A DNA stretch of 64,000 nt, from the NCBI GenBank assembly GCA_012838425.1, contig DUPG01000010.1, positions 4,194-68,193 of the forward strand. Reading direction: 5' to 3'. Each line of letters starts with the position of its first letter. Position 1 is the first letter of the stretch. The DNA comes from Clostridiales bacterium. Lineage in GTDB: Bacteria > Bacillota > Clostridia > Christensenellales > CAG-138. The position numbers and the translations under genes were made by a program. Positions 4,226-64,000 of the stretch are shown here, one piece after another. The notes below the pieces were generated by a model. It did not search any database, was not told the DNA's origin, and saw nothing but the letters and a program-made list of their open reading frames with translations.

Positions 4226-4673
4226 AATTAGCATAAACGCTGAATTGAAGGAAATAACTGAGCAGGAGTTAGTCGCTTTGCTGACTGAGGTCTGTGAAGC
4301 CGCATTACAGCATGAGCAGAAAAGCGGCAGCATAGGGATTAGTATTATTGACGACACACAGATAAGGGAATTAAACGCGCAGTTCAGGGGTATAGACAGG
4401 CCGACAGACGTGTTGAGCTTCCCTTGTATAGATGGTTCATCGTATGATGTTACCGATGCGTACTTGGGCGATATTGCAATCTCAATAGATAGGGCGGAAA
4501 TGCAGGCGAATGAGTATGGTCATTCTTTGCGACGCGAGCTTGCTTTTTTGACGGTGCATGGTGTACTACATCTATTAGGCTATGACCATGAGGCAAGCGA
4601 CCAAATTGAAGCGGAATGTGATATGTTTAGGAAGCAAGAAGAAATATTAACGAGTTTGGGGTATAAAAGATGA
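4218..4673 (+). CDS. ybeY: rRNA maturation RNase YbeY
   Basis: HGVLHLLGYDH metal-binding motif. ATG 4218 overlaps the phoH stop (ATGATTGA). The ORF-track start at 4197 is TTG. Confidence 0.9.
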   Translation: MIEISINAELKEITEQELVALLTEVCEAALQHEQKSGSIGISIIDDTQIRELNAQFRGIDRPTDVLSFPCIDGSSYDVTDAYLGDIAISIDRAEMQANEYGHSLRRELAFLTVHGVLHLLGYDHEASDQIEAECDMFRKQEEILTSLGYKR

Positions 4674-6992: not shown

Positions 6993-7805
6993 TTACTTAT
7001 CACATTTATATGTTTGCACTACAATACAGTTGCTTGGGCAAACAGGAACACATTCTCCGCAATTATTGCATTTATGCGGGTCAATATGCGCTAAGTAGTT
7101 TTCAATAGTTATAGCTTCCTGCGGGCAAGCCTTTGCGCAGCGTCCGCACGCTATGCAAGCGCGCATACAAGCGTCCTTTGCGATTTTTGCTCTTTCGTGA
7201 TTGCTACATCTAACTGTAACATTGCACTCCTTAGGAATAAGCTCAATAACATGGCGCGGACATTCGAGCACACATTCGCCGCAAGCTGTGCATTTATCAG
7301 CATTTATTATTGCAACTCCATCTACAATATCTATAGCGTCAAAAGCGCATTTCTTTGCGCAGTCGCCCAAACCAATGCAAGCGTAATGGCACTGCTTGTT
7401 GCCGCCGGCCATTTGAGCAACAGCGCGGCAGCTTGAATAGCCCTCATAGTCGTATCTCTTTTTAGATACAGAGAAAGCGCCTTGACACAGCACTCTTGCT
7501 ACTCTGGGTTCACGCTCTGAAACCTCAACCTGCATTATCTGCCCCATCTTTTCTAAGTTATCAGCACTTGCAGCGGTACAATCCTCTGGGCAAGCCTGCC
7601 CTTCTATCAATGCCTTTGCAAAAGCGTCGCAGCCTGCAAATCCGCACGCGCCGCAGTTTGCGCCGCCAAGACAAGAACGCAGCTCTTCAACTCGCGGGTC
7701 TTCTTCTACATAAAATTTCTTTGCGCTTATTCCTAATACCACGCCGAATACTATGCCTATTCCGCTTAATATGCCTGCTGCAAGCAGTATATCAGTCCAA
7801 TTCAT
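6993..7805 (-). CDS. rnfB: Rnf electron transport complex subunit B (poly-ferredoxin type)
   Basis: N-terminal membrane helix, a CGGANCGACGFAGC cluster, and several CxxCxxCxxxCP 4Fe-4S motifs. Last gene of the rnf operon. Confidence 0.9.
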   Translation of the reverse strand: MNWTDILLAAGILSGIGIVFGVVLGISAKKFYVEEDPRVEELRSCLGGANCGACGFAGCDAFAKALIEGQACPEDCTAASADNLEKMGQIMQVEVSEREPRVARVLCQGAFSVSKKRYDYEGYSSCRAVAQMAGGNKQCHYACIGLGDCAKKCAFDAIDIVDGVAIINADKCTACGECVLECPRHVIELIPKECNVTVRCSNHERAKIAKDACMRACIACGRCAKACPQEAITIENYLAHIDPHKCNNCGECVPVCPSNCIVVQTYKCDK

Positions 7806-7817
7806 AATTACCTCCTA

Positions 7818-8405
7818 TTACTGGGCTATGCCTGAGAATCCCATAAATGCCAATGCCATAAGCCCCGCAATAACCAAAGAGCTTGAGAAACCACGCATAC
7901 ATTTTGGGATATCCGAGTGCTCAAGGCGTTCGCGGACTCCTGCCATAAGCACGATTGCAAGCATAAACCCAAGCGCGCTGAATGTACCATTAAGAACTGA
8001 GGTTAAGAGATTGTAATTTGAGTTTATGTTTAATATTGCAATACCTAATACCGCGCAGTTTGTAGTTATCAGGGGCAGGTAGATACCAAGGCTTTTATAT
8101 AGTGTGGGACTTGACTTTTTAATAAACATCTCAACCACTTGAACGAGAGCGGCAATTATGAGTATGAACGCAATGGTGTTTAAGTACTGCAAACCTAATG
8201 GAACGAGGAGAAATGCGTAAACAAGCCAAGTGCACAGCGATGATATAGCCATAACGAATGTAACAGCCATACCCATTCCGAAAGCCGTTTCGACCTTGCC
8301 CGAAACTCCCAAGAAGGGGCAGTTACCTAAAAATCTTGAGAATATAACATTGTTCGTAAGCACACAGGTTATAAACAATGTGAATATGTTAACTGATATG
8401 TTCAT
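7818..8405 (-). CDS. rnfA: Rnf complex subunit A
   Basis: 195-aa polytopic protein (NNVIFSRFLGNCPFLG) in the position and with the length of RnfA. Confidence 0.93.
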   Translation of the reverse strand: MNISVNIFTLFITCVLTNNVIFSRFLGNCPFLGVSGKVETAFGMGMAVTFVMAISSLCTWLVYAFLLVPLGLQYLNTIAFILIIAALVQVVEMFIKKSSPTLYKSLGIYLPLITTNCAVLGIAILNINSNYNLLTSVLNGTFSALGFMLAIVLMAGVRERLEHSDIPKCMRGFSSSLVIAGLMALAFMGFSGIAQ

Positions 8406-9043
8406 TTACAGCTTGCCTCCCTCTTCTTTGCGATTTTGTTGGTGATTGCATTCAATATGCCTAATGTTAAGCCCAAAGTAATAAATCCGCCGGGAGCAAG
8501 CGCGAAAACGGACATAGGCGTAAATGATGCGGGCAAAATACTTATTCCTAGTATTGTGCCGTTACCTATGATTTCGCGAATAGAGCCTATTATTGCAAGC
8601 GCCAATGTGAATCCAATGCCCATTCCTAAACCGTCAACAATAGAAGGGAGCAGGGGGTTTTTGCTTGCGAAAGCCTCTGCGCGAGCTAATATAATGCAGT
8701 TTACAACGATTAGCGGAATGAAAATTCCTAAGCTCTTATCAAGCTCGGGCAGGTATGCTTTCATAAGCAGCTCAATCATTGTAACGAATGTGCATATAAC
8801 GACTACAAACGCAGGAATTCTGATCTTATCAGGTATGAAGTCCTTCAAAAGTGATATAACAAGGTTTGAGCCTATAAGCACTAATGTAGTAGCAAGCCCC
8901 ATTCCTAAGCTGTTCTGAAGCGATGTGGTAATAGCTATTGTAGGGCATAAGCCTAATACCAAGCGGAATGTGGGGTTTTCATTAAGTATTCCGTTGAAGA
9001 ATGTATTTAATAGCCTTTTCAAATCAATTCCCCCTTTGCTCAT
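8402..9043 (-). CDS. rnfE: Rnf complex subunit E
   Basis: GILNENPTFRLVLGLCPTIAITT motif. 4-nt overlap with rnfA. Confidence 0.93.
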   Translation of the reverse strand: MSKGGIDLKRLLNTFFNGILNENPTFRLVLGLCPTIAITTSLQNSLGMGLATTLVLIGSNLVISLLKDFIPDKIRIPAFVVVICTFVTMIELLMKAYLPELDKSLGIFIPLIVVNCIILARAEAFASKNPLLPSIVDGLGMGIGFTLALAIIGSIREIIGNGTILGISILPASFTPMSVFALAPGGFITLGLTLGILNAITNKIAKKREASCK

Positions 9044-9662
9044 TTATATAATCAATTTGCGCCAACAAATGCTCGCAAAGTGCATTTACTCCGTCAACCA
9101 CGGTTCTTGAGGTGCCTGTAGCACCGGTGATAGCATCAACATTGTTCTCGTCTGTTGCAGGTTCGTTTGCTTTTTTGAGAATCAGCTTGTAGGTCTTGCC
9201 TATGAACTGTTCAGTGAATTCAGGGTCTTTCGCTTTTGAGCCGTAGCCTTCTGTTTCCTTGAAGTTCGCACCGCCTACGGACAAGCCTGTGATTTTACCG
9301 TCTAAATCCATGCCGACAGTCAACTCAATTTCGCCAGCATAGCCCTTTACAGTTATCTGCCCGGTAACGCCGACTATTTCATTACCTAATACTGCTATGA
9401 AAACATTGTCTAAGCTGTCGTCAATGCTCCCGAATTCTATACCCGATACAACGACTTTTTCAGCTTCGGTATCGGAAGCCTTGTTAAGCTGTATGAAGTC
9501 GTCAGCATTCTCAAAAACAGCTTTACGCGCTTCATTTGACGCCTTTCTTGCGTGTTCGTTTATGGGGGCAAGCGTAATGTCGTGCACAACGCCTAACAAA
9601 AGACCTGCTACAGCGGCTATAATAAATAGCTTTAATACCAAAGTAATTGTATTATCACGCAT
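9024..9662 (-). CDS. rnfG: Rnf complex subunit G (FMN-binding)
   Basis: N-terminal helix and the DAITGATGTS flavinylation motif. ATG 9662 has a GGAGG SD 8 nt upstream. The ORF-track start at 9704 would overlap rnfD by 50 nt. Confidence 0.9.
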   Translation of the reverse strand: MRDNTITLVLKLFIIAAVAGLLLGVVHDITLAPINEHARKASNEARKAVFENADDFIQLNKASDTEAEKVVVSGIEFGSIDDSLDNVFIAVLGNEIVGVTGQITVKGYAGEIELTVGMDLDGKITGLSVGGANFKETEGYGSKAKDPEFTEQFIGKTYKLILKKANEPATDENNVDAITGATGTSRTVVDGVNALCEHLLAQIDYINEQRGN

Positions 9663-10596
9663 TTGCTTTACCTCCATAAACTCTCGGTTTGATGAATTTA
9701 TCAATCAAGGGTGTGGCTATGTTCATAATCAGAATCGCATATGTAACGCCCTCGGGATAGCTTGAAAATTTTCTCATTACAGCGACTATTAAGCCGCAGC
9801 CTATTGCGAATAGGACTTCTCCTCGGAATGTCATCGGGTTTGTTGTGTAATCGGTTGCCATGAACACTGCGCCTAACAATAAACCGCCTGAGAGCACATA
9901 TTGCGCAGGGTTAATACTGAACCCATTGAACATCCAGCCGCAAAGTAGGGCAGTACCTACAAATATAGTTGGTATGGCTGGGGTGATAACGCGCCTTATA
10001 AGCAGATAAATAAAGCCCAATATAATAGCGACCTTTGATACTTCGCCGATACAGCCGGGGATATTGCCCAACAGAAGCTGCATAGTAGAATAATTCTCAG
10101 GGTTAGTGAGCGGAGTAGCGGCAGTCGCTGCGTCAACGCTCATAAAGCCAAGCGAAGAAGTCGTATTAGTGTTCACAAATGTTGAAACTAATGGCCCGAA
10201 GCTTGTAACCAGTATTGCGCGTGCGGCTAATGCAGGGTTTAAGAAGTTGCCGCCTAAGCCGCCAAAGAGTTGCTTTATAAGTATTATTGCTATTACGCTG
10301 CCCAAGCAAGCTGACCACCAAGGCGCTGTAGAGGGCAGGTTAAGTGCTAACAAAAGTCCGGTAACAACAGCGGATAAATCCCTAATTGTTACAGGCTTCT
10401 TTGCTAACTTCTGCCATATAAATTCAGCTAATACAGCGGATACAATCGAAACGGCTACTAATATTCCGGCACGGTAGCCAAAGAAATATAGACCGGCAAA
10501 TGTTGTAGGAAGAAGTGCGATGATCACATCGCGCATTATTGAGGTAGTAGTATCTTTAGAATGTAAATGCGGGGCAGGTGAAACGATTAAACTCAT
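9655..10596 (-). CDS. rnfD: Rnf complex subunit D
   Basis: NqrB/RnfD-type polytopic protein with the FMN-attachment motif SGGLLLGAVFMATD. Confidence 0.93.
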   Translation of the reverse strand: MSLIVSPAPHLHSKDTTTSIMRDVIIALLPTTFAGLYFFGYRAGILVAVSIVSAVLAEFIWQKLAKKPVTIRDLSAVVTGLLLALNLPSTAPWWSACLGSVIAIILIKQLFGGLGGNFLNPALAARAILVTSFGPLVSTFVNTNTTSSLGFMSVDAATAATPLTNPENYSTMQLLLGNIPGCIGEVSKVAIILGFIYLLIRRVITPAIPTIFVGTALLCGWMFNGFSINPAQYVLSGGLLLGAVFMATDYTTNPMTFRGEVLFAIGCGLIVAVMRKFSSYPEGVTYAILIMNIATPLIDKFIKPRVYGGKANA

Positions 10597-11915
10597 TGCT
10601 TTGCCCTCCTTTCAGCTTGTGCAATCTTTTCTTTCATAACCTTAAATGAGGGTGTAAGGTATCGCGACGCGGGGCATACATAAGAACAGCACCCACATAG
10701 TATGCAATCCTTTATGTTGCGCGATATTGCTGCCTTCATGTCGTTTTTATCGCAATCAAATTTAAGCGCGTGTGGCAGTAAGCCCGCAGGACAAACATAA
10801 ACGCAGCGCGCGCAGCGTATGCAGGCGGATTCCTCAGCAAACTTTGCTTCATGCTTGCCCAGCACTACAATTCCTCCGGTTGCTTTGCAAACGACTATAT
10901 CTTCTGTAGGTGCGCAAGGAGAAGTCATGCAGCCGCCTAATAGAATTTTCTTCGGTTCTTCCGAATATCCGTCGCATGCACCTATTAAATCGTAAAATAT
11001 TGAGCCGACTGGTACTAACAGGTTGGACGGACGATTTACCTTGCCAGTTACAGTGGTTACTCTTGAGATTAGAGGCAAGCCCTTACGAATAGCGTCTGAA
11101 ATAGCCTTGCTCGTGGAAGCATTTATTACGATAACTCCAACATCAATAGGCAATCCGCAGCTTGGAACCTCTCTGCCGGTCGCTACTTGTATGAGCTGTT
11201 TTTCGCTTCCTTGCGGATACTTCGTCTTTAGCACTAATACGCTTATATTTTCATAGTTTTTTACAACTTCTTTTATTGCTTGAATCGCTTCGGGCTTATT
11301 GTCCTCAATGCAAATAATTCCTTTGCTTACTTTCAGCGCACGCATTGTCAAGTGCAAGCCATCAACAACTAATTCGGGCTGTTCAAGCATTATTCTATGG
11401 TCGCAAGTAATATGAGTTTCGCACTCAACACCGTTTATAAGTATAGTATCGCAGTTCTTACCATTTGGAACAGTCAGCTTAACATGAGTAGGAAATGCAG
11501 CGCCTCCCATGCCGACAATACCAGCATTCTTAACAGCTTCTACGAATTTCTCAGTATTTTCGATTTCTTCTTCGGTTAAACCATGCAAATCGCTTACCCA
11601 TTCGTTAGCATAGTCGTTTTGTATTTCAACACAAAGTACGGGTTGTGAATCAGCGAATTGATGCTTTTCAACACACAATACTGTACCAGAAACGCTCGCG
11701 TGTATAGGTACTCCCAAAAAGCCTTGCGGTTCTCCTATGAGCTGCCCTTTGAGAACGCGTTGTCCTTTTTCTACACAAGGTGTGCAAGGCGGACCCATGT
11801 GCATTTGCATTGGTATAATTACAGTACCCGGTTCAAATTCTCGTATGGGTTCATTGCGTGTTGCGCGTTTTCCTCCATGCTTGATAGGGTGAATACCACC
11901 TCTGAATGATTTCAA
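10593..11915 (-). CDS. rnfC: Rnf complex subunit C
   Basis: FRGGIHP N-terminus, NADH/FMN-binding GMGGAAFPT, and two CxxCxxCxxxCP clusters. The start is uncertain: TTG 11915 with AGGTG upstream is preferred, but the ORF is open to TTG 11951. Confidence 0.88.
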   Translation of the reverse strand: MKSFRGGIHPIKHGGKRATRNEPIREFEPGTVIIPMQMHMGPPCTPCVEKGQRVLKGQLIGEPQGFLGVPIHASVSGTVLCVEKHQFADSQPVLCVEIQNDYANEWVSDLHGLTEEEIENTEKFVEAVKNAGIVGMGGAAFPTHVKLTVPNGKNCDTILINGVECETHITCDHRIMLEQPELVVDGLHLTMRALKVSKGIICIEDNKPEAIQAIKEVVKNYENISVLVLKTKYPQGSEKQLIQVATGREVPSCGLPIDVGVIVINASTSKAISDAIRKGLPLISRVTTVTGKVNRPSNLLVPVGSIFYDLIGACDGYSEEPKKILLGGCMTSPCAPTEDIVVCKATGGIVVLGKHEAKFAEESACIRCARCVYVCPAGLLPHALKFDCDKNDMKAAISRNIKDCILCGCCSYVCPASRYLTPSFKVMKEKIAQAERRAKQ

Positions 11916-12144
11916 TACATACACCTGCTTTCTACAATAAATTAGAGTCAACTTGTATCATAACATATTTGCAAAAAAAGTTAAAGAAAAAAATCGACAA
12001 CAGATTCGGATATATTATATTAAATCTCTTTCCTGCTTTTGCTTATGAGGTAATATTACTGTAATATGGCAGATTTACCATTCAAGAATTATTGTGTGTT
12101 ATTTGCGTAGTGGCTATTGTCCGTTATGGGAAATTCGATAAAGC

Positions 12145-22950: not shown

Positions 22951-22975
22951 GGCGGCTGCGATAGCCGCCTTTTTA
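22951..22975. terminator. Bidirectional terminator between alr and spoIVB
   Basis: GGCGGCT-GCGAT-AGCCGCC hairpin flanked by AAA/TTTTT. It abuts the spoIVB stop. Confidence 0.7.
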
Positions 22976-24253
22976 TCCCATCAGTTCCGCCATCCAGTAT
23001 GCGTACATACAGTAGCCCCTCTCGGGGTCATTTATCATAACGTGAGTAACCACACCTATAATTTTGCCGTTCTGAATTATAGGGCTGCCGCTCATGCCCT
23101 GCACAATTCCGCCTGTTTTCTCCAACAGTCGCGAATCGGTAATCTCAATAACAAAACCTTTTGATTCCGCTTTGCTTTGTGAAAACAGCTTAGTAACCTT
23201 GCATTCGTATTCGCCTATTGCAGAATCGTCAAGCGTGGTGAGTATAGTCGCCTTGCCTACACGCACTTCATTAGGAAAAGCCACAGGCAAGGGCTTGTCG
23301 TAAGCGGAGAGACTGTCGAAGTCTGTATCACTGTAAAGCGTACCATATACTCCAAACTCGCAGTTAGTTCTTATAGAACCAAAGCGCGTAGAGCTTGAAC
23401 CAAAGGTTCCTAATAGCTCGCCGGCTTCACCAACTTCGCCTTTTATTATGTCAACTATCTCACATTCGGTAATCTCGCCGCTTTTTACATCAAAAACTGT
23501 GCTCGTGTCAATATCCATAATGGCATGTCCGAGCGCCGCGTAGCTCAAGGTGTTTGGGTCAAAAAATGAAATAGTTCCTATGCCTGCTGTGCTGTCGCGC
23601 ACCCACATTCCAAGCTTGTATTGCTCTTCGCGCGGGTCGTATGCGGCTTTAAGGCTGATTTTTACTGTGCTCTTGTTTCTTTGTATTGTTAGCGTAACTT
23701 GTCCATTCGAAGCATTGCATATATTGACCAAGTTGTCTGTGTTGTAAATTTCAGTACCGTTTGCTTCTATTATTACATCGCCTGCTGTTATTCCGGCACC
23801 AGCTGCAGGAGAGGGTATGCTCTTGATTGTACCGTCGCTCAAGGTAGTTGTAATATCGCTTGTGCCAACTACTAATATTCCTTTAGAATGCAGCGCAATT
23901 CCAATACTTTGTCCGCAGGGAATTAGGTAATGGTTGCTTTTCGTGTAAAAGAAAACTGTTTTTACAGGAATTATTCCGAACAGCTCAACCGTTGCTGTGG
24001 TTCTATGTCGGTTCAGCGATTCGTCTATGCTTCCTGAAACCGTTTGCGTATCGTTGTTAAGCTTGTAGTAAAATGGGGCGGGAAGCGAGGAAAAGAAGTC
24101 GGCTTTTTGCGTATCAGAATCAAGATAGACAACATTCGGGATACTGCTTAGCACCTGCATAGCAGGCGAGAAGTTGAAAAGCACCATGAATAAGCACAGT
24201 ACTATTCCTATAGCTTTGATAATTGAGCTTTTTTGCCAATTGAATCTTCTCAT
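22973..24253 (-). CDS. spoIVB: SpoIVB peptidase (S55)
   Basis: N-terminal helix, a PDZ region, GIGTISFFDP...YAALGHAI and GMSGSPI serine-protease motifs. ATG 24253 has an AGGGG SD. Lies downstream of recN as in other Firmicutes. Confidence 0.87.
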   Translation of the reverse strand: MRRFNWQKSSIIKAIGIVLCLFMVLFNFSPAMQVLSSIPNVVYLDSDTQKADFFSSLPAPFYYKLNNDTQTVSGSIDESLNRHRTTATVELFGIIPVKTVFFYTKSNHYLIPCGQSIGIALHSKGILVVGTSDITTTLSDGTIKSIPSPAAGAGITAGDVIIEANGTEIYNTDNLVNICNASNGQVTLTIQRNKSTVKISLKAAYDPREEQYKLGMWVRDSTAGIGTISFFDPNTLSYAALGHAIMDIDTSTVFDVKSGEITECEIVDIIKGEVGEAGELLGTFGSSSTRFGSIRTNCEFGVYGTLYSDTDFDSLSAYDKPLPVAFPNEVRVGKATILTTLDDSAIGEYECKVTKLFSQSKAESKGFVIEITDSRLLEKTGGIVQGMSGSPIIQNGKIIGVVTHVMINDPERGYCMYAYWMAELMG

Positions 24254-24365
24254 AAACACCCCTAATAGCAGCATAACACAAAAGTAATGGTGTTATTATT
24301 ACCATAGTACAGGCTTGAATATTCTATTGCTAATGATAATAAAATAGTATATTGTCAAGAATTGA

Positions 24366-33267: not shown

Positions 33268-33313
33268 ATTTGTCCTCTTGAAACAACAATGCAGCAAAGG
33301 ATATGCTATACAT

Positions 33314-34096
33314 ATGAAGAACACAAATGTTATTAAACTACAAGTTATAGATGAACGCCCCTATACATATGCGCGCCTTTGCGAAGCCGCTTCGGCTTTC
33401 AAGCAAGTGTCTATGCTGCCATATATTGCAGACCTCGATTTGCTGACAGCCGAAAGTGTGGCGCAGGCGGATTGCATATTGGCTAATGTCGCAAGCTCGT
33501 CAAACAATATCAGAGCATTGCATAATCTATATTCAAGCAATGAAGTTACTGCAAAGCTGTATATATTGGGCGACGCGTTTTCGATTGATGAAGCTTCAAT
33601 CGTATTAGAGCGGTACTTGGAATATGCCTTTGCCGAACCTATACCGGGAGATATTGTGATAAAGCGCATATATGAGTTTATGACGACTAAGCCCGAGTAC
33701 AATCCGCATGAGGAGGACTCTTTGAGCTTTTATAACAGCTATTTTAAGCAAATGGAGCTGTGCGCCGGCGTATTGCTTCGCGAATTAGGAATCGCAATGC
33801 ACCTGCAAGGCTTCAACTACCTGCGGTTTGCGGTTACTTACTTCACTTTTTCACCGCGGGCAACGCTTAAATGGGATGTGTTTCCGAAAATGGAGCGCAT
33901 ATTTCATACTTCCCGCGTTAATATTGACCGTTCAATGCGCTATGCCATAGAAACTGCTTGGAATAATGGCGACTTCGAAGCTCAACAGGCACATTTCGGC
34001 TACACAATAGATGAGCAAAAGGGCAAACCTGAGGTTCGCGAATTCATATCTATGTTAGGGCAGCATATGCGCACAAAAATGCTGAAATTAGCATAG
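33314..34096 (+). CDS. Spo0A-like regulator: Spo0A_C DNA-binding domain with a degenerate (pseudo)receiver domain
   Basis: The C-terminus LGIAMHLQGFNYLRFAV...SRVNIDRSMRYAIETAWNNG...FGYT...KPEVREFISML aligns with the B. subtilis Spo0A effector domain. The N-terminus is receiver-like but substituted at key residues. The ORF is open from TTG 33278, and ATG 33314 has only a weak SD. Confidence 0.75.
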   Translation: MKNTNVIKLQVIDERPYTYARLCEAASAFKQVSMLPYIADLDLLTAESVAQADCILANVASSSNNIRALHNLYSSNEVTAKLYILGDAFSIDEASIVLERYLEYAFAEPIPGDIVIKRIYEFMTTKPEYNPHEEDSLSFYNSYFKQMELCAGVLLRELGIAMHLQGFNYLRFAVTYFTFSPRATLKWDVFPKMERIFHTSRVNIDRSMRYAIETAWNNGDFEAQQAHFGYTIDEQKGKPEVREFISMLGQHMRTKMLKLA

Positions 34097-34765: not shown

Positions 34766-35911
34766 ATGAAAAGACGAGTCGTGTTATTTGTCCTCGATAG
34801 CGTTGGCATTGGCGCTTTGCCTGACGCTCATTTGTTTTCTGATACCGGTGCGCACACCTTGGGAAATATCTACAAGCTATGCGGCAGGCTTGATTTGCCT
34901 AATATGTATTCTATGGGGCTGTCTGAAATAGAGGATTCGCGGCTTCCTAAGTATCATGGAAATATTGTCGGCGCATTCGGTCGAGCGGCTGAAAAGAGCA
35001 GCGGCAAGGATACAATTTCAGGACATTGGGAGCTTATGGGCGTTATCTCTGAAAACAGATTCGAAACATATACCGAAAATGGATTTCCGTCTGAACTGAT
35101 TGAGGATTTCGAGAAGCGCATTGGCACGAAAACGCTTGGCAACTATGCGGCTTCGGGTACGGAGATTATAAAGCAGCTTGGTGCAGAGCATCAAAAAACC
35201 GGTTATCCGATAGTTTATACTTCCGCAGACAGTGTGTTTCAGATAGCTGCGCATGAAGATATAATTTCATTGCAAAGACTTTATATGATGTGTGAAATTG
35301 CGCGTGAAATCATTGATGACGGTGGCTATAACATAGCAAGAGTTATAGCGCGTCCCTTTATTGGCGATCCAATAGTTGGATATACGCGCACGCCGAATAG
35401 AAAGGACTTTTCAGTAGAGCCTCCAAGCACAACGATATTAGACAGGCTTCAGCATATGGGGTTTGAAACAGTTGGCATAGGCAAGATCCATGATATATTT
35501 GCAGGCAAGGGAATATCCATTGCAGAGCATACGAAAAGCAATGCCGAGGGTATAGACGCTACAATACGCTACTTAAAATCTGGCGAAGGCGATTTTATAT
35601 TCACAAACCTTGTTGATTTCGATATGCTTTTCGGGCATCGCAACGATTATGAGGGATACAGAAAGGCGTTAGAGTACTTCGACAGCAGGCTGCCTGAAGT
35701 TATTTCCTCTATGACTGAGCATGATTTACTTATAATCACTGCTGATCATGGCTGCGACCCGACATTCACAGGTACAGACCATACGCGAGAGTACATTCCA
35801 ATACTTGTTTTCAATAAGCGTATGACCAATGCGATGCCTTTGGGTACTGTTGACAGCTTCATTCATATTGGCGGCTTGGCATATACATACCTGTCTTCGC
35901 TTGCGGAATAA
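34766..35911 (+). CDS. deoB: Phosphopentomutase
   Basis: N-terminal VLDSVGIGALPDA and the metal-binding ADHGCDPT motif. Confidence 0.93.
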   Translation: MKRRVVLFVLDSVGIGALPDAHLFSDTGAHTLGNIYKLCGRLDLPNMYSMGLSEIEDSRLPKYHGNIVGAFGRAAEKSSGKDTISGHWELMGVISENRFETYTENGFPSELIEDFEKRIGTKTLGNYAASGTEIIKQLGAEHQKTGYPIVYTSADSVFQIAAHEDIISLQRLYMMCEIAREIIDDGGYNIARVIARPFIGDPIVGYTRTPNRKDFSVEPPSTTILDRLQHMGFETVGIGKIHDIFAGKGISIAEHTKSNAEGIDATIRYLKSGEGDFIFTNLVDFDMLFGHRNDYEGYRKALEYFDSRLPEVISSMTEHDLLIITADHGCDPTFTGTDHTREYIPILVFNKRMTNAMPLGTVDSFIHIGGLAYTYLSSLAE

Positions 35912-35939
35912 CAAGGACCTTTATGCTATACAATATTGT

Positions 35940-36992
35940 ATGTTACATAGACTTAATAAAAAGCGCATAGTTATCATAATATTAGCATTGTCCTTGACCG
36001 TAATAATCGTTAGGGGAATATTCTTTGCGTTTTTACCTCTACCGCAGTTCTTAGAAAACCTTTCGGGTGAAAAGATGAAGCCTAAGGACATTTTATTCGA
36101 TGAAGTAGCCTTTATCAGCGTTTTTGATGTGAAAACCAACAGAGTGTTTGAGGTTGGGCTTGAAGAATATGTATTCTGCGCAACCGCAGCAGAAATGCCT
36201 GCTTCATATGAGCTGGAAGCTATAAAAGCGCAGGCGTTAGCAGCAAGAACATATGCGTTTACCCATATGCGCGAGCTATACGCAGATTCCACACCTTGCA
36301 AGAAGGGTTTATCCGATGTTTGCACCGATAGCGGCTGTTGCCAATCCTATAAAAGCATTGAAAGCCTATTTGAGAAGTGGGGGAGCAACGCAAGCAGGTA
36401 TGCCAAGAAGGTATATGAAGCAGTAAAAGTTACAAAAGGTGAGATAGTATCGTATCAAGGAGAGCCAATTCTGGCGCTTTTTCACGCATCATCAGGAGGG
36501 GTTACGGAAAACAGCGAGAATGTGTTTTCATCAGCACTGCCGTACTTGGTCAGCGTTGACAGCCCGAATGAAGAATTCCACACGCATTTTGCTGATACCA
36601 AAGTGTTAAGCGCTGAATATGTGGTAGAAGCAATAAATACAAGCTTTCTCGAAGCAAACTTGCGCAAAGCAGAGCTAAGCAAACAGATAAAAGTGTTAGA
36701 ACGCTACATCTCAGGAAGAGTAAAAACCGTTCAGATAGGCAACAGCACTTGCACAGGCAGAGATTTGAGGAATACGCTGGGGCTTAATAGCGCCAACTTT
36801 TCTATTGAGTTTGATAGCGACAAGGTTATTATATCAACAATAGGCTTTGGGCATGGAGTTGGAATGAGTCAAGCGGGCGCAAATGCTATGGCGCAGGCTG
36901 GCAGTAACTACATACAGATATTGACGCATTACTATCAAAGCACAGAGGTAACCTCTATATACCCAAAGTACGATTCTATTAGCCCGCCATAA
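35940..36992 (+). CDS. spoIID: Stage II sporulation protein D (lytic transglycosylase)
   Basis: N-terminal helix and SpoIID/LytB signature motifs (EAIKAQALAARTYA, HASSGGVTE, GHGVGMSQ). The track start at 35829 overlaps deoB by 83 nt, so ATG 35940 was chosen. Confidence 0.85.
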   Translation: MLHRLNKKRIVIIILALSLTVIIVRGIFFAFLPLPQFLENLSGEKMKPKDILFDEVAFISVFDVKTNRVFEVGLEEYVFCATAAEMPASYELEAIKAQALAARTYAFTHMRELYADSTPCKKGLSDVCTDSGCCQSYKSIESLFEKWGSNASRYAKKVYEAVKVTKGEIVSYQGEPILALFHASSGGVTENSENVFSSALPYLVSVDSPNEEFHTHFADTKVLSAEYVVEAINTSFLEANLRKAELSKQIKVLERYISGRVKTVQIGNSTCTGRDLRNTLGLNSANFSIEFDSDKVIISTIGFGHGVGMSQAGANAMAQAGSNYIQILTHYYQSTEVTSIYPKYDSISPP

Positions 36993-44456: not shown

Positions 44457-45524
44457 TTAACTCTCACTGCTTAGCATATCCATTCTATTTTTCAGTATCA
44501 ATGCTTCGACTATTTCGTCAATATCACCGTCTAAAAATTCTTCAAGGCGGTAAAGAGTAAGGTTAATTCTATGGTCTGTAACCCTGCCTTGCGGGAAGTT
44601 ATATGTACGCACTCTCTCGCTTCTATCGCCCGAACCAATTTGGCTTTTGCGTTCGCTTGCAAGCTGTGCTTGGCGTTTGCTTCGCTCTAAATCGTATAGG
44701 CGTGTTTTGAGAATCTTCATAGCGGTTTCTCTGTTCTTTATCTGCGACTTTTCATTTTGGCATTGCACCACCAAACCGGTAGGCAAATGCGTTATGCGAA
44801 TAGCGCTCTCTGTCTTGTTTACATGCTGACCGCCCGCGCCGCTTGAACGGTATGTGTCTATTCTCAGGTCAGTCGGGTTAATCTCGATTTCCACATCCTC
44901 GACTTCGGATAATACCGCTACCGTTGCTGCAGAAGTATGAATTCGCCCTTGCGATTCGGTTTCGGGTACCCTCTGAACTCTGTGCACGCCGTTTTCAAAC
45001 TTTAATCTGCTGTAAACGCCCTTGCCTTTTATTGAAATTATTGCTTCCTTAACGCCGCCCATTGGCGTATCGTTAATGCTTAAAACTGATGCGGAATATC
45101 GCTTCCTTTCTGCGTATCTTAGGTACATGCGCATCAGGTCAGCGGCAAATAAAGATGCCTCATCGCCGCCAGTGCCTGCGCGAATCTCGATAATTACATT
45201 TCTGTCGTCGTCTTCATCCTTAGGAAGCAGCATAAATTTTAATTCGTTGGTTACCTCCTCGATTTTCTTGTCCAACTCATGCAATTCGCTTTCAAGCAGT
45301 GTGCGCATTTCAGAATCGTTTTCCGATTTCAGCATTTCGGCGCAATCATCTTTTTGAATCATAAGCTCTTTCAGATTGTCATATGCTTCAACAATCTCCT
45401 GCAATGAATTATGCTCGCGCGTGAGCTCTAAGAACTTCTGCCTATCGTTGACCGTTTCAGGCAGCATTAGCTCCTCATTTATTTCGTTATAGCGTTGCTT
45501 CATGGCTTCAAGCTTCTTTAGCAT
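44457..45524 (-). CDS. prfA: Peptide chain release factor 1
   Basis: GGQHVNKT motif and a PxT-type region ([14 protein letters not shown]). ATG 45524 has a GAGGAG SD. The track N-extension was rejected. Confidence 0.95.
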
Positions 45525-45526
45525 AT

Positions 45527-46810
45527 TTACTCCTCGCTCATTAAGAATTCTTTGCCGCAAATATCTATAACAAATTGCCTGCATGTTTCTATTGCGTTCA
45601 ATTCGTCTTTTGATAGCGGCTTTATGGCAGTTATTCTCGATGTATCAGTATAGCAGGGTAATGTCTGATGCACAACCCGTCCGCTAACATATTGCTTTAT
45701 GCAGTACACAGGCAAGTAGCTTATTGAAACCGCGCGCGTACCCGTTTGGTCTTTTTCAAGCTCTAATTTAACGAACATACCATAATCGCAGGGTGTTGAC
45801 ATATTCGCAATAAAGTTTCCAAGCGAATACACTATGGGCGCTTTTATCGTTTTGCCGGCCCTTTCAATTTCAAGCCATTCTATAGGCTGTACTACATGTG
45901 GATGTGAAGCGATAATCGCGTCGGCTCCCCATGAAACTAAGTCGCGAAACAGCTGAACAACTCTCGCCGGCGGAGTGGTAACGCGCTCATCGCCGCAGTG
46001 CGGGAAAGCAATTATATAATCTGCCCCTTCTTCCTTGCAAGCGTTTATCATGGCTTTTACATATTCGGTATCATACAAATATGAAATAGAGTGCAAATCC
46101 TCTTCGCTTAAATTGCGATTAAATGTATTGAAACCCCCTGAGAAGGCCACAATGCCTATTTTTATTCCGTTGACTTCAACAATCAGCGGCTTGACCTCAT
46201 TTTTTGATAAGAAGGTACCGGTCTGCAATAAGCCAGCTTCGCGAATAATCCTTATAGTTCTGCGCAAACCTTCTATACCTCTGTCTAAGCAATGATTGTT
46301 GGCTGTGGTTAGCACATCAAAGCCTAAGTCATAAAGATTTCTCGCTAACTCGTCGGGCGCATTAAAGGTTTGATATGGCTTTTGGGAGTTAGGGTTGTCC
46401 TCAGTTGCTGGCGGTCTGGTGGGTGCAGGTCCGGAATATGTGGCGCTTTCGCCCGCTAACGGCACCTCAAGATTCCCGCACATAATATCAACCGAATTGA
46501 ACAGCTCGCGCATGGGCTCAAAGCTGCGTGTAAAATCGTAGCTGCCATCGCTTTGCAATGCGGATTTAACTTGGTTTTGCATAATCATAATATCGCCAAC
46601 AAAGCCAAGAGAAGCGGACATAGTTGTTGGTTTGGGTGAAGGCGTTAATAAGACGCTCTCTGTCGGTGTAGGTGATAGGGTAGGGCCGGGAGATGAAGCA
46701 GCTGCTGAATTAGGCGTAATATCGACTATCGGCTGTTCGACCGAGCTGCATGAAACGCACATCGCAAGCATAGCAATTATGCAAAATGCACATACGATTT
46801 TATTTAACAT
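45527..46810 (-). CDS. CapA/PGA_cap family metallophosphatase-like exported protein
   Basis: Signal peptide, [17 protein letters not shown] and ASHPHVVQP motifs. The start is ambiguous (ATG 46810 or 46825). Confidence 0.72.
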
Positions 46811-59977: not shown

Positions 59978-60623
59978 CAAGTTTGAGATGATGTGCGTAA
60001 TCGTCAATCACGGTCATGGAAGCAAGGTTGTAAACATGGCTAAAAAATACGGTGTGGTTGGCGGCAAAATAATGCATGGCACCGGAACAGCCAACAGCAG
60101 AATTCTCGATTACTTAGGCTTGTCTGATATTAGGAAAGAGGTTGTGCTGATGTTTGCTTTTCCCGAAGTCGCCGCTGCTGCATTAGAGGGCTTGAGTAAA
60201 GAGTTGAAGCTCGAAAAGCCTAACCATGGCATAGCGTTTTCAGTACCAGTTATGCAGATAATAGGCTCAGCAAAGCTAAAATTAGCTGAATCAAATACTC
60301 AAATTGAAGGAGAAGATACAATGTATCAAATGATAATGGTAATTGTCGATAAGGGTAGGGCGGAAGATGTAATAGACGCAGCCACTGCCGCAGGTTCAAA
60401 GGGCGGTACCATAATAAACGCAAGAGGCGCAGGCGTTCACGAAACGAGCAAAGTATTCGCTATGGAGATTGAACCTGAAAAGGAAATTGTGATGATACTT
60501 TCCGAGCAGGAAACGGTAGAAGCTATAGTGAACTCAATCAGAGAAAAGCTGAATATCGACGCGCCCGGTAAGGGAATAATCAGCATACAGCCAGTTACAA
60601 GGACTTATGGCTTATACAAGTAA
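59970..60623 (+). CDS. Tandem P-II-like signal-transduction protein
   Basis: Two about 100-aa halves (MMCVIVNHGHGSKVV...GTGTA and MIMVIVDKGRAEDVI...ARGAG) with the P-II beta-alpha-beta pattern. GTG start with an AAGGAG SD. 8-nt overlap with the permease. Confidence 0.65.
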   Translation: MNSKFEMMCVIVNHGHGSKVVNMAKKYGVVGGKIMHGTGTANSRILDYLGLSDIRKEVVLMFAFPEVAAAALEGLSKELKLEKPNHGIAFSVPVMQIIGSAKLKLAESNTQIEGEDTMYQMIMVIVDKGRAEDVIDAATAAGSKGGTIINARGAGVHETSKVFAMEIEPEKEIVMILSEQETVEAIVNSIREKLNIDAPGKGIISIQPVTRTYGLYK

Positions 60624-60640
60624 AAATGTTTACTTCTGCG

Positions 60641-60680
60641 TCCCTCATTCACACAACGAATGGGGGATTATTACTAATTT
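60641..60680 (+). terminator. Hairpin after the P-II gene (weak U tract)
   Basis: TCCCTCATTC / GAATGGGGGA 10-bp stem (one G-U), followed by TTATTACTAATTTT. Confidence 0.4.
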
Positions 60681-60907
60681 TGACGAATGTTCACCCCTCG
60701 CTTAACTTTTACAATGTATTTCAATAAGTACAACATTGTTGCGCTCTTGCCAAACACTTAATTCTTTAGCAACAAAAATAGCAACTCAAATTATAAATTA
60801 TAAACACATATCATAAATAATGCTAAGAAAATAATATAAAATACAGAATATCATTACAATTTATGAGCAGATTATTGCGCAAAATCGTTCAGTATTATTT
60901 GCAATCG

Positions 60908-60936
60908 TTGACGCAAAACTAACAATGGCTTAATAT
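60908..60936 (+). promoter_or_regulatory. Sigma-70-type promoter of the pilin-like locus
   Basis: TTGACG (60908-60913), 17-nt spacer, TAATAT (60931-60936). The 5' UTR would be about 110 nt. Confidence 0.45.
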
Positions 60937-61054
60937 ATAGGCGGAATGCTTAATTCAGGCATTTTATATTATCCGGCATGTGGCAAGTATTGCTGAAAAT
61001 GACCATAAGGACAGCGGTACTTTCTACTGCATAAAATTATAATGGGTTGTTTTT

Positions 61055-61351
61055 ATGAAAGCAAAACAGCACAAAAAAGCCTTTACTATCGTCGAGTTGG
61101 TCATTGTTATTGCAGTAATTGGAATTTTAGCGGCAATACTGATTCCCGCATTCTCAAATATTATTGCAAGAGCAAATGCAAAAGCGGCATTGTCTGATGC
61201 AAGAAGCACGCTTACATCATTTTTAGCAGAGAATCTTGAAATAATTGATGGACAATTAGCCGCAAGCATAGTGATTTTCACTACAAAAGCGAGGAATATT
61301 TATGTTTACGGATACTCAAATCATTTTGCCGATTCGGGCAAGCTGCTATAG
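61055..61351 (+). CDS. Prepilin-type N-terminal cleavage/methylation domain protein (type IV pilin/pseudopilin-like), ending at an in-frame TAG
   Basis: MKAKQHKKA/FTIVELVIVIAVIGILAAILIPAF is a class III signal with Glu+5. It stops at TAG 61349-61351, in frame with the next ORF. Confidence 0.75.
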   Translation: MKAKQHKKAFTIVELVIVIAVIGILAAILIPAFSNIIARANAKAALSDARSTLTSFLAENLEIIDGQLAASIVIFTTKARNIYVYGYSNHFADSGKLL

Positions 61352-61372
61352 TCTGCTGGCAACCCATATAAA

Positions 61373-63850
61373 ATGGAGGATTTAGCGGAGCTGATAGAGC
61401 AATACAATTGCCCTGACGAGTCTTTATTAGGCATAGAAGAAGAAAGCAATTACGCTATTTTCCTGCGCACAACTCCTTCCGGCACCAAAGGCGGAATAGA
61501 GGAAATCAATGATATATTCGTGAACATCACAAGCAAGATCAAGGATTTGCCGAACAATGTGCAGGTTTTTGACGGATTTTTAGTAGGTGGAATAATCGAC
61601 GCAAATGATTTCCCGTCAACTGGCGGCACTAACCCCGGTGAAGTGCCCGGCGTCGGCGGAACCACACCTCATGCTACACCCGGTGGCAGCACTACTTATT
61701 CGGTAACATATGACAAGAATTGCGACGATGAAAGTATAGTAGCGCCTGTTGACAACAACCAATACACAGTGTTAAGCACAGTTACTGTTAAGGAAGCACT
61801 CGAGAGATACGGCTATTCATTCGATGGCTGGGAAGCTGCACACAATGGTCAGCTATATCAACCGGGCGACACATTCAATATGCCTTCAGGGAACACCACG
61901 CTAAAGGCGCGCTGGTCTGTATTGCCTAAATACACTCTTAGCTTCAACCTAAACGGCGGTGTAGATACCGAGAATGCCTTTAATGACATAGAGTTCTATC
62001 CGGGCGATGATATTGTACTGCCCTCTGCTGTTCCCACAAAGGAAAACAGTGCTTTCGGCGGCTGGGACTACGATGGCATGACAATTGCTGCAGGCGGCAC
62101 GCTAATTGATGCACCTGCTGAGAATATTGAGCTTGTAGCGAAGTGGACAGCGTATGAGTTCTACATTGTGTTTGACGCAAATGGCGGAACCGGTGCGCCT
62201 GCAAATGAAACCGTTCCTTGCGCAAGTGCAGGCGAATACACCGTTCCTCAAACTGTACCCACAAAGGCGAACTATGAGTTTGATCACTGGGCAACAACAC
62301 TCGGCACAAACGTTCAGCCCGGCGACACGATAGCATATACTCCCGACTTTGCCGGTCAAACAATTACTTTGACTGCTCAGTGGAGGCAGGCGCCCACGAA
62401 TTACACAGTAAGATTTACTCTAACTGATATGTTCAATGAATCTGGAACATTTACTGTTGATGTAACCATACCGTTAATACCCGGTCAATCAATTACTATA
62501 AATAATAGCAACTTCGCTGATTACCTGCCGGGCTATATGCCGTATGACAGCACAAATCGCTTTAACGCAACATATTCAAGAACATTCACGACAACGGGCA
62601 CAACCATTTCGCCTTCATCACAATCTGTCAATGTATATAGATACACAGTAATTGATGGAGAGGAATACATACTTTTGACCACCGATAAGGGTGTGAAGAA
62701 GCTGAGCGTTGATGAAACCCACATGGGCAAGAATTATCAGCTGCAAGCCAATATTACTACCTCGATAACTTTTCCGTTGGGCTGGGACGCTGATACCGCC
62801 ACACGCAGATTGCCATTCACAGGAAAGTTTGACGGCAACAATTACTCTGTAAAATTCTTCTCGAACTGGGCTGGTCATAAAGAATACGTCGGCTTATTCG
62901 GAAAAATCGGACCTACAGGTGTAGTTAAAAACCTCACAGTAGATCGTGGCGGTGTTGTTTCTGGTCATAAGTATATTGGCGCACTGTCGGGTTATAATGA
63001 AGGCACTATCATAAATTGTTCTACAATAGGAACAAATGATGTAAGCTCTATCTCTAATGCAGGGGATGTATTCGTAGGTGGCTTTGTTGGATATAATGTT
63101 GGCACGATTATGCACTGCAACGCCACTATAAAGACTGTTCAAGCCAGTGACGGTGAATATGTTGGTGGCTTCGTAAGCTATAACGCTTCAACAGGCGTAA
63201 TATTAGACTGTCATGCCACATTAACAGGCAATGTTAATCCCGGAAGTGGCGATGCTTCATATTCCGGAGGCTTTGTCGGCTACAATGAGGGCACAATCAC
63301 TTGGAGCTCTGTTTCCGCAACTGCAACGAACTCAGCTGTATATGGCAGATACTATGTTGGCGGCTTTGTAGGCTACTCATCAGGCACAATAGAGTACAGT
63401 TCTTCAGAATGGTATATGTTAAGAAACACAAACAGCTTATACGGTGATTACTTCGCAGGCTTCTGCGGTTACTCTGTCGGCGCTACTTTCAGAAATTGCT
63501 TCATTCGCGTAACACAGCAAATGCAGCCTCGAGGTGTTTATGCCGGGTTTACAGTATTAGCGTCAGGTAACACCACTATAGAAAACTGCTATGCTTACCT
63601 GAAATCAGTATCAGGAGGAAACGGCAACTTAGATATTACGGTAGTAGACGGCACTGCAACAGTATCAAACTGCTACTTAGTAACAACAGCAACCGGCACA
63701 CAGCACGCAACCTATGGCTTTACGAAGGTTGCAACTGAGGCTGATTTGAAAGATTCAGCAAGCGCAAACGCTGCCTGGGTAAACGCTGGCTGCTGGGATT
63801 TCTCAGGTCTTTATGTAAAGCTCGTTTCGTGGGAAGAGTTTAGCGCATAA
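61373..63850 (+). CDS. Repeat adhesin-like protein (InlB-B/Listeria-Bacteroides repeats plus GLUG-like repeats), possibly the 3' part of the pilin-like gene
   Basis: No signal peptide and no SD. Gly/Pro linker, three YxVxF..NGG...GYxFxGW-type repeats, and about eight (Y/F)VGGFVGYNxGTI repeats. Same frame as 61055-61351. Confidence 0.7.
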   Translation: MEDLAELIEQYNCPDESLLGIEEESNYAIFLRTTPSGTKGGIEEINDIFVNITSKIKDLPNNVQVFDGFLVGGIIDANDFPSTGGTNPGEVPGVGGTTPHATPGGSTTYSVTYDKNCDDESIVAPVDNNQYTVLSTVTVKEALERYGYSFDGWEAAHNGQLYQPGDTFNMPSGNTTLKARWSVLPKYTLSFNLNGGVDTENAFNDIEFYPGDDIVLPSAVPTKENSAFGGWDYDGMTIAAGGTLIDAPAENIELVAKWTAYEFYIVFDANGGTGAPANETVPCASAGEYTVPQTVPTKANYEFDHWATTLGTNVQPGDTIAYTPDFAGQTITLTAQWRQAPTNYTVRFTLTDMFNESGTFTVDVTIPLIPGQSITINNSNFADYLPGYMPYDSTNRFNATYSRTFTTTGTTISPSSQSVNVYRYTVIDGEEYILLTTDKGVKKLSVDETHMGKNYQLQANITTSITFPLGWDADTATRRLPFTGKFDGNNYSVKFFSNWAGHKEYVGLFGKIGPTGVVKNLTVDRGGVVSGHKYIGALSGYNEGTIINCSTIGTNDVSSISNAGDVFVGGFVGYNVGTIMHCNATIKTVQASDGEYVGGFVSYNASTGVILDCHATLTGNVNPGSGDASYSGGFVGYNEGTITWSSVSATATNSAVYGRYYVGGFVGYSSGTIEYSSSEWYMLRNTNSLYGDYFAGFCGYSVGATFRNCFIRVTQQMQPRGVYAGFTVLASGNTTIENCYAYLKSVSGGNGNLDITVVDGTATVSNCYLVTTATGTQHATYGFTKVATEADLKDSASANAAWVNAGCWDFSGLYVKLVSWEEFSA
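61697..62389 (+). repeat. Three tandem coding repeats of about 75 aa (Listeria-Bacteroides / InlB B-repeat type)
   Basis: YSVTYDKN...YSFDGWEA...LKARW; YTLSFNLNGG...SAFGGWDY...LVAKW; YIVFDANGG...YEFDHWAT...LTAQW. Confidence 0.65.
62885..63690 (+). repeat. About eight degenerate GLUG-like coding repeats (25-30 aa)
   Basis: YVGLFGKIGPTGVVKNLTV, YIGALSGYNEGTIINCST, FVGGFVGYNVGTIMHCNAT, YVGGFVSYNASTGVILDCHAT, YSGGFVGYNEGTITWSS, YVGGFVGYSSGTIEYSS, YFAGFCGYSVGATFRNC, and others. Confidence 0.6.
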
Positions 63851-63878
63851 GCAAAATATCTTTTCCTACCTCCTATCT

Positions 63879-63907
63879 AAGCGGGCGCAATGCCCGCTTA
63901 TTTTTTC
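63879..63907 (+). terminator. Rho-independent terminator of the adhesin gene
   Basis: AAGCGGGC-GCAAT-GCCCGCTT followed by ATTTTTT. Confidence 0.8.
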
Positions 63908-64000
63908 AATAATAATCAAACATTGGGTATTTGCTGTTATTATTATTCTATAAACGGAACACTGAACATGACAGGCAACAGCAATTATGTGCAGTTAGGT

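Follow-up and report, generated by a model that had tools for sequence, protein, structure and literature searches.

A polymorphic amber codon, probably marking a segregating null allele, in a modular type IV pilin-adhesin gene of a digester Clostridiales bacterium

Modular pilins and the layout of the locus

Modular type IV pilins are pilins that carry an additional, non-pilin module, examples being PilB (with a vWA module) and PilC (with a lectin module) of Streptococcus sanguinis (Raynaud et al., 2021, PMC8179133). More than 1,200 modular pilins in 264 architectures were found in a survey of InterPro, and one of the surveyed architectures, IPR012902-IPR011493, was described as possessing a predicted M26-family peptidase module (PMC8179133). 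The gene analysed here lies on the forward strand at positions 61055-63850 of a 64,000-nucleotide stretch of DNA from a Clostridiales bacterium (contig DUPG01000010.1 of assembly GCA_012838425.1), the whole of which is referred to as the window, and it is divided there by an in-frame TAG into two open reading frames (ORFs). An intact 931-aa allele (P0121), relatives with a single ORF and Pfam matches identify the undivided ancestral gene as a 931-codon modular type IV pilin or pseudopilin, and the form present in the window is probably a segregating amber null allele of this pilin-adhesin gene.

Like S. sanguinis PilB and PilC, the intact gene encodes an N-terminal class III signal and an alpha1 pilin module, with a non-pilin module grafted on by means of a linker. 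However, the graft is much larger here (approximately 740 aa), combines Flg_new with GLUG repeats and is known from sequence, while in this strain a stop within the pilin module interrupts the fusion. The intact 931-aa allele and the relatives have a non-pilin domain joined to the C-terminal side of the pilin in a single polypeptide; the window allele does not. The GLUG signature is presumably the IPR011493 of the surveyed architecture named above.

A second system for comparison is inlA of Listeria monocytogenes, in which a premature-stop-codon (PMSC) polymorphism has been described (PMC12427964, PMC5131979). As with inlA, this is a surface adhesin gene with nonsense and frameshift alleles which segregate beside intact alleles in wild populations, and truncation in either species leaves the adhesin detached from its anchor. 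However, the stops of inlA are scattered and remove the C-terminal LPXTG anchor, with the adhesin being secreted, whereas the breaks described here are confined to 42 nt close to the 5' end and part the adhesin from the N-terminal signal for its export and anchoring, without which it would be unexportable.

In the window, ORF1 extends from the ATG at 61055 through 98 codons to the TAG at 61349-61351. The 21 nt which follow (TCT GCT GGC AAC CCA TAT AAA) are free of stops and in frame with the ATG at 61373, from which ORF2 runs in the same frame as ORF1 for 825 codons to the TAA at 63848-63850; ORF1, the TAG, the spacer and ORF2 read through as 931 codons. The modules of the whole gene are arranged in the order of a prepilin leader, an alpha1 helix, a small pilin module (to approximately codon 190), a Gly/Pro linker, three Flg_new repeats and a GLUG-repeat region. 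On the forward strand, the truncated 5' part (61055-61351; 98 codons and the TAG) comprises the leader, the hydrophobic alpha1 and the first predicted beta-hairpin, with its amber codon (61349-61351) replacing a conserved Gln99 that is CAG in intact alleles and CAA or CAG in relatives. The apparent 21-nt spacer (61352-61372) corresponds to codons 100-106 (SAGNPYK), conserved in relatives as SAGNPF/Y, and the 3' part (61373-63850), called as a separate 825-aa ORF, to codons 107-931 with the pilin module's second half, followed by the linker and by the Flg_new and GLUG repeats.

The product of ORF1 matches N_methyl (PF07963) with 28.4 bits against a cut-off of 21.2 and TIGR02532 with 25.6 bits against a cut-off of 16.3. 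Its leader MKAKQHKKA, followed by FTIVE, has the features of a type IV pilin, namely a short basic leader ending in G/A and then F-T-[LI]-[VI]-E with Glu at +5, and the hydrophobic alpha1-N is present with a Kyte-Doolittle peak of 3.48 at residues 16-30. Residues 5-86 align to solved type IV pilins (E-values of 1.8e-8 to 1e-5), including Geobacter PilA-N, Pseudomonas aeruginosa PilA and gonococcal PilE. AlphaFold2 (AF2) modelling predicts a helix at residues 12-64, with a predicted local distance difference test score (pLDDT) of 83-92 for residues 11-40; the two runs, based on alignments of 11 and 83 sequences, have mean pLDDT values of 52 and 56 and are unreliable past approximately residue 90. 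Conservation across the relatives extends to approximately residue 190, ahead of the Gly/Pro linker. As the TAG lies inside this conserved block, it leaves a stub of 98 aa that is predicted to lack half of the pilin module.

Pfam analysis of ORF2 shows three Flg_new/List-Bact (InlB-B) repeat stretches (E-value 1e-20) and four GLUG stretches above threshold (E-value 5e-13), with approximately eight GGFVGY-like motifs recognisable by eye. No hydrophobic segment was detected in this protein, the best 15-residue Kyte-Doolittle window being 1.45, and it possesses neither a signal peptide nor a transmembrane segment; its first 40 residues have a net charge of -7. There is no LPXTG motif at its C-terminus, the only LPxTG-like string (LPFTG) being internal at residue 480. 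ORF2 alone thus has neither the N-terminal signal nor the C-terminal sorting signal of a Sec- or sortase-dependent surface protein. It is also without a Shine-Dalgarno (SD) sequence ahead of 61373, the anti-SD duplex there having an energy of -1.5 kcal/mol versus a median of -7.0 kcal/mol for 37 other starts in the window. With regard to pilus assembly, T2SSE, T2SSF and Peptidase_A24 were not found among the long ORFs of the window scanned against Pfam, and the gene tables for the related loci that were retrieved likewise list no prepilin peptidase or assembly ATPase/platform.

These results agree with a preliminary description of the locus, whose coordinates, shared frame and stop-free 21 nt were all reproduced. 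The prepilin N-terminus, InlB-B-type repeats and GLUG-like repeats that it had recognised are borne out by PF07963 and TIGR02532, by the three Flg_new stretches and by GLUG (four stretches above threshold, approximately eight by eye), while the duplex energy bears out its statement that no SD sequence precedes 61373. It had also reported ORF2 to be without a secretion signal and the window to be without pilB, pilC and pilD, in line with the hydrophobicity, charge and C-terminus of ORF2 and with the Pfam scan of long ORFs respectively, and its structural reading, in which the prepilin leader is the sole export or anchoring signal of a 931-codon gene, was right.

The intact gene and its broken alleles

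ORF1 and ORF2 are one 931-codon gene. A 191-residue query spanning the junction identified homologues of approximately 60% identity, which cover 94-100% of it without interruption, and GKLMQSAGNPF is the aligned sequence in all eight close homologues at the place of GKLL-stop-SAGNPY in the window. Scans of genome and metagenome contigs yielded paralogues and orthologues of 45-58% identity from metagenome-assembled genomes (MAGs) of digesters. CAA or CAG, both coding for Gln, is present at the position of the stop in 14 of 14 related loci. The relatives are single ORFs of 654-1891 aa where the contig allows (uninterrupted in loci L003, L005, L006, L011-L014, L016, and L017), and they have the module order of prepilin leader, pilin module of approximately 190 aa, Gly/Pro linker, Flg_new repeats and GLUG repeats.

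The intact allele itself was found with the 825-aa ORF as query. Protein P0121 is 931 aa in length (98 + 1 + 7 + 825), has Gln at residue 99, shows approximately 99% identity to the 825-aa ORF over the full query length and carries PF07963, PF09479 and PF07581 in one protein. Its neighbourhood is that of the window, with ABC transporters, an MGMT-type DNA-binding-domain gene, crp, DUF1538 and a P-II protein preceding the gene. The 90%-identity cluster of P0121 has 30 members, which occur in a 931-aa form, a 98-aa plus 825-aa form and a 109-aa form; one of them, P0150 (HHT86530.1), is identical to the 825-aa product of the window. The NCBI annotation of the MAG contains the same split, its proteins HHT86529.1 and HHT86530.1 being identical to the two ORFs. 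The single-gene reading of the preliminary description is therefore matched by an intact protein at the same locus in the same species, and in the alignment of orthologous loci that it had suggested, codon 99 is a sense codon (Gln) in relatives and intact alleles. It had stated that the ORFs would be two genes if orthologues kept the stop and ORF2 had an SD sequence and start or a signal peptide of its own; relatives have Gln at this position and no such signals were detected.

One relative, L007 (JAAZFD010000137.1, 126-5489), has an in-frame TAA at 567-569, where relatives have Lys, and a TGA at 4428-4430, with no frameshift. This had suggested that in-frame stops might be found family-wide, which was rejected since all other relatives are uninterrupted; L007 is another decayed copy and not a family habit.

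The DNA of the alleles was compared for loci L001, L002 and L018-L058, all of which are 99.0-99.9% identical to the window. Most of these loci were fetched via allele-specific protein queries, with only 10 being from an unbiased sample of a neighbouring gene, and all same-species matches are from anaerobic-digester or bioreactor-type metagenomes. One locus, L051 (ENA ERZ3460579 NODE_409, 5.8x coverage), was treated as doubtful and left out of counts. In the 50 nt upstream of ATG 61373 there are eight haplotypes, two intact and six broken. The intact haplotypes are GGA91-CAG99, seen in 14 loci (of which the doubtful L051 is broken further upstream), and TTT91-CAG99, seen in L058. CAG99 with an intact ORF is counted for 15 same-species loci, and the intact 931-aa allele is present in at least 15 metagenome samples; the loci listed as intact are L018, L031-L040, L050, L053, and L058. 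Among the broken haplotypes, TAG99 occurs on TTT91 in the window, L001 and L002, on GGA91 together with S94L in L019-L024, and on plain GGA91 in L045 and L046. A deletion of A at 61370 occurs on GGA91 in L025-L030 and on TTT91 in L047 and L048, eight loci together, and a deletion of C at 61329 occurs on TTT91 in four loci (L041-L044). Both deletions are -1 frameshifts ending at the TAG at 61383-85, 10 nt past the ATG, which results in products of 109 aa.

All of these disruptions and the unusual polymorphisms beside them are confined to a segment of 46 nt on the forward strand (61325-61370), which holds the TTT/GGA change at codon 91, the C deletion at 61329, S94L at 61335, the C/T change at 61349 and the A deletion at 61370. 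No other stop or indel is present in the remaining 2.4 kb of the gene, and the 3' ORF is open in each of the loci covering it. In the sample taken via the neighbouring P-II protein, which is independent of the state of the gene, seven loci are intact, one has the TAG, one has a frameshift and one is a doubtful low-coverage contig. The locus therefore has what defines a polymorphic null allele, that is, an intact allele at the orthologous position together with independent lesions (TAG99, delA 61370 and delC 61329). The TAG is real and polymorphic, and natural strains show at least two other, independent ways of breaking the gene. Of the options put forward in the preliminary description, that of a nonsense pseudogene is supported by these intact same-species alleles and independent frameshift alleles.

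That of a base-call error is refuted. A sequencing or assembly artefact at 61349 has in its favour only the prior probability that a lone in-frame stop in a MAG is an error, and it is virtually out of the question, as 11 or more contigs that were assembled independently, by different pipelines and from different samples, share this T, occur on three haplotype backgrounds and carry distinguishing single-nucleotide polymorphisms (SNPs). These TAG alleles (the window, L001, L002, L019-L024, and L045-L046) are from JGI and Logan assemblies of different samples and are 99.2-99.9% identical to the window. In addition, the flanking variants are closer together than the k-mer length of the assemblers, so the haplotypes exist in reads.

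Variants private to broken haplotypes number 12 nonsynonymous (N) to six synonymous (S) versus one N to four S for intact haplotypes (Fisher p = 0.13, at a divergence below 1%), and the private changes of the window's own lineage are four N to one S. The direction is as would be expected for relaxed constraint, at a level which is not significant.

In the doubtful locus L051 the gene is divided into parts of 62 aa and 859 aa by two deletions of 1 nt each, at window positions 61236 and 61254. The crp gene is also split on this contig and assembly errors are likely; if real, this would be a fourth independent break in the pilin module.

Readings of the TAG and the clustering of lesions

Known amber recoding systems include pyrrolysine decoding and the recoding of TAG to Gln by phage suppressor tRNAs, with some TAG-recoding phages carrying an amber suppressor derived from tRNA-Gln. 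The preliminary description had put forward a regulated readthrough or suppression switch between a short pilin and a pilin-tethered adhesin; a Gln-inserting suppressor tRNA, pyrrolysine or a leaky context would be the means of obtaining such a mixture. As in those systems, the in-frame TAG stands where relatives have Gln, so that the wild-type protein would be regained with a tRNA-Gln-derived amber suppressor, and the frame is perfectly kept across it. However, unlike in those systems, the stop is not conserved, with TAG being present only in some strains as opposed to CAG in the 15 same-species loci and CAA or CAG in the 14 related loci, and the sister alleles are -1 frameshifts that have the same truncating outcome and are beyond repair by readthrough. 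The window also encodes an intact peptide chain release factor 1 (RF1), the factor which reads UAG (prfA, 44457-45584, reverse strand), with PCRF and RF-1 domains, the PET tripeptide and the GGQ motif. TAG is a normal stop in the window, as had been noted previously for lon (to 31595) and for the gene of the crp family (to 58385); these are among the nine of 54 long ORFs (17%) that it ends. There are no tRNA genes and no pyl genes in the window, and no significant structure surrounds the stop, the hairpin at 61342-61400 being no better than shuffled sequences (z = -1.6, with 11 of 200 shuffles folding as well). The base after the stop is T, and UAG followed by U is a context that terminates efficiently in Escherichia coli. 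With the stop not conserved, the sister alleles frameshifted, RF1 intact and the RNA context unremarkable, regulated readthrough is not supported and is considered extremely unlikely; the TAG is probably not a recoding switch.

Two related candidates were rejected. Genome-wide reassignment of TAG is contradicted by its use at the end of nine of 54 ORFs and by an RF1 with PET and GGQ motifs; the genetic code is the standard one, with RF1 present. For a riboswitch or recoding RNA, no Rfam match was obtained in 60400-64000 except a chance match to a small RNA at an E-value of 0.38. It should be mentioned that the first ATG of the RF1 ORF gives a 20-residue extension overlapping the upstream PGA_cap gene, the true start probably being a later Met.

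The pilin of Geobacter is split into two genes, PilA-N and PilA-C; the arrangement as two genes is conserved and fixed there, and the C-terminal partner has a separate route to the periplasm. In the window allele a short N-terminal part, with alpha1 only, is likewise encoded apart from the globular part, and the naturally short Geobacter PilA-N pilins are the best PDB matches of the N-terminus (PilA-N, PDB 6VK9, being among its top sequence matches). The locus could on this basis be a functional gene fission, selected for its two useful products, namely a short pilin (98-109 residues) in the alpha1-only style and an 825-aa protein formed by termination-reinitiation at ATG 61373. Each of the breaks places the upstream stop -24 to +12 nt from this ATG (TAG 61349, or TAG 61383-85 in the -1 frame), which is compatible with translational coupling, and none of the broken alleles has a disrupted 3' ORF. 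In contrast to Geobacter, however, the split is polymorphic and the 3' ORF has neither an SD sequence nor a signal. Its product lacks a signal peptide, a transmembrane segment and a sorting motif and has a strongly acidic N-terminus, so that a repeat protein of extracellular type would remain trapped in the cytoplasm. The stop moreover cuts the block conserved in relatives (the second half of the pilin module), none of the relatives has a conserved two-gene arrangement, and the N/S trend points to relaxed constraint. Fission is regarded as very unlikely.

The distribution of the lesions is less readily accounted for. Under uniform placement, the chance of three independent lesions falling within 42 nt of the 2796-nt gene is approximately 7e-4. 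Outside this segment, each of the three TAG haplotypes resembles intact haplotypes more than it does the other two, and the presence of TAG and of the A deletion on more than one codon-91 background implies that identical bases mutated recurrently or that recombination took place over very short tracts; L045 has the appearance of an imported patch of 250 nt. At codon 91 itself (61325-61327), the window has TTT (Phe) and most strains have GGA (Gly), the state of the relatives, with three adjacent bases differing on otherwise identical haplotypes (L058 versus L035, L037 and L040). TTT91 makes the string CATTTT. Its exact reverse complement, AAAATG, lies 45 nt downstream at 61370-75 and holds the run affected by the A deletion and the ATG. 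This pairing may reflect quasi-palindrome-templated mutation or may have arisen by chance (approximately 0.05 by a rough count).

It could be envisaged from these features that 61325-61370 is a hypermutable (possibly quasi-palindrome-templated) or recombination-prone switch, in which a C/T change at codon 99, slippage between A4 and A3 and the templated TTT/GGA change toggle adhesin display on and off, which would provide natural digester populations with a heritable polymorphism for display. The containment of all three kinds of disruption within 42 nt would be in keeping with this, as would the occurrence of TAG on three backgrounds and of the A deletion on two, the TAG haplotypes that are not mutual nearest neighbours, the triple-base difference at codon 91 and the complementarity created by TTT91. 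However, the long homopolymer or tandem repeat of slipped-strand contingency loci is not present; the only homopolymer is of four A residues (61370-61373), far below the known tracts of slipped-strand phase variation, and the other lesions are a substitution and the deletion of a single C in GCCG. There is no known mechanism for a recurrent site-specific C to T change here, and the hairpin around the stop is not significant. Short-tract recombination between co-resident strains, as in the L045 patch, can itself yield homoplasy, and most loci came from allele-specific queries, with the unbiased sample contributing 10. A switch of this kind is considered unlikely.

In the preferred reading, that of a segregating amber null allele, the class III (prepilin) signal and alpha1 helix would carry the large Flg_new/GLUG adhesin-type module via the Gly/Pro linker, and a type IV filament on the cell surface of this spore-forming digester bacterium would presumably display this module. 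A change of Gln99 from CAG to TAG in this strain would cause RF1 to terminate at codon 99 and release the prepilin stub of 98 residues. As the remaining 825 codons have neither an SD sequence nor an export signal, they would be left untranslated, or would be translated by inefficient reinitiation into a cytoplasmic, non-functional product. Since digester populations contain the amber allele alongside the intact one and no fewer than two independent null alleles of the -1 frameshift type, the gene appears to have been lost repeatedly, potentially driven by relaxed selection or by an advantage in losing the displayed adhesin. The surface-display function, the non-expression of the 3' part and the selective reason for loss are those that we infer for the locus.

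A number of points weigh against a null allele. The 825-codon 3' ORF is still open in every broken allele covering it, with no secondary stops or indels as signs of decay, a point that has little weight because all alleles are less than 1% diverged. The N/S contrast given above falls short of significance, and a suppressor tRNA or pyrrolysine system may exist elsewhere in the genome. A simple loss-of-function model also does not predict that all independent breaks should fall within 42 nt (p approximately 7e-4), nor that TAG and the A deletion should each be found on two or three haplotype backgrounds. The allele is ordinary in kind, apart from the tight clustering and recurrence of the breaks.

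For annotation, HHT86529.1 and HHT86530.1 are to be read as one disrupted gene, and the 825-aa "InlB B-repeat protein" is not to be counted as a stand-alone cytoplasmic or secreted protein. The locus provides a clear natural example, in an uncultured digester Clostridiales bacterium, of a large Flg_new/GLUG adhesin predicted to be delivered by a prepilin leader, and of a putative surface structure whose loss recurs in nature, in the manner known for inlA of Listeria. If the clustering were due to a hot spot or switch, the locus would represent a contingency site of a new kind, able to operate in the absence of a long repeat tract; if due to selection, it would mark which part of a modular pilin must go for function to be abolished.

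Flanking regions and other genes of the window

The gene is preceded by a 430-nt AT-rich intergenic region (60624-61054) that is unusually polymorphic between strains, approximately 11 of its sites being variable, among them a 2-nt indel (60774-75) and an insertion of 1 nt (61032). A promoter-like site, AGGACA-18-TAAAAT, is located in this region on the forward strand (61008-61037) as a match to the consensus; such sites upstream of the pilin gene are no more numerous than in shuffled sequence. The ribosome-binding site of the pilin gene is itself weak in the window (-3.1 kcal/mol). A T/G polymorphism is present at 61047, 8 nt upstream of ATG 61055, with the window having GGGTTG and most strains GGGGTG, the better SD-like match. 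No terminator was found between ORF1 and ORF2, so that the two would be co-transcribed, and a strong hairpin with a T-run resembling an intrinsic terminator is predicted just after the TAA (63878-63900, forward strand).

The related digester MAG JAAZFD01 (L003, L005-L009) has at least six paralogous prepilin-Flg_new-GLUG genes encoding proteins of 1000-1900 aa. Downstream of those in L005 (3226-3672, 3907-4416), L006 and L007 (5608-6084) are small lipoprotein-like genes of approximately 150 aa, with products ending in ...FIKIEVTD.A...V..D.KHF and showing a weak match to DUF6591 (E-value 4.7e-5, below cut-off). At the corresponding place, the species of the window has a 37-aa ORF and an HtrA-like protease. 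Approximately 3.2 kb downstream of the pilin-adhesin gene in this species, past the end of the window, lies a gene for a 735-aa protein with Dockerin_1 and Flg_new repeats (L031-L034 and L038; e.g., L031 9973-10796), which suggests a cellulosome-type organism that may use Flg_new modules on two different display systems. Elsewhere in the window, the chromosome is identified as that of a spore-forming, anaerobic member of the Clostridia by genes for homologues of SpoIVB (22973-24274, reverse strand), Spo0A (33278-34096, forward strand) and SpoIID (35829-36992, forward strand), as well as a full Rnf cluster with RnfC, D, G, E, A, and B types (6993-11951, reverse strand).

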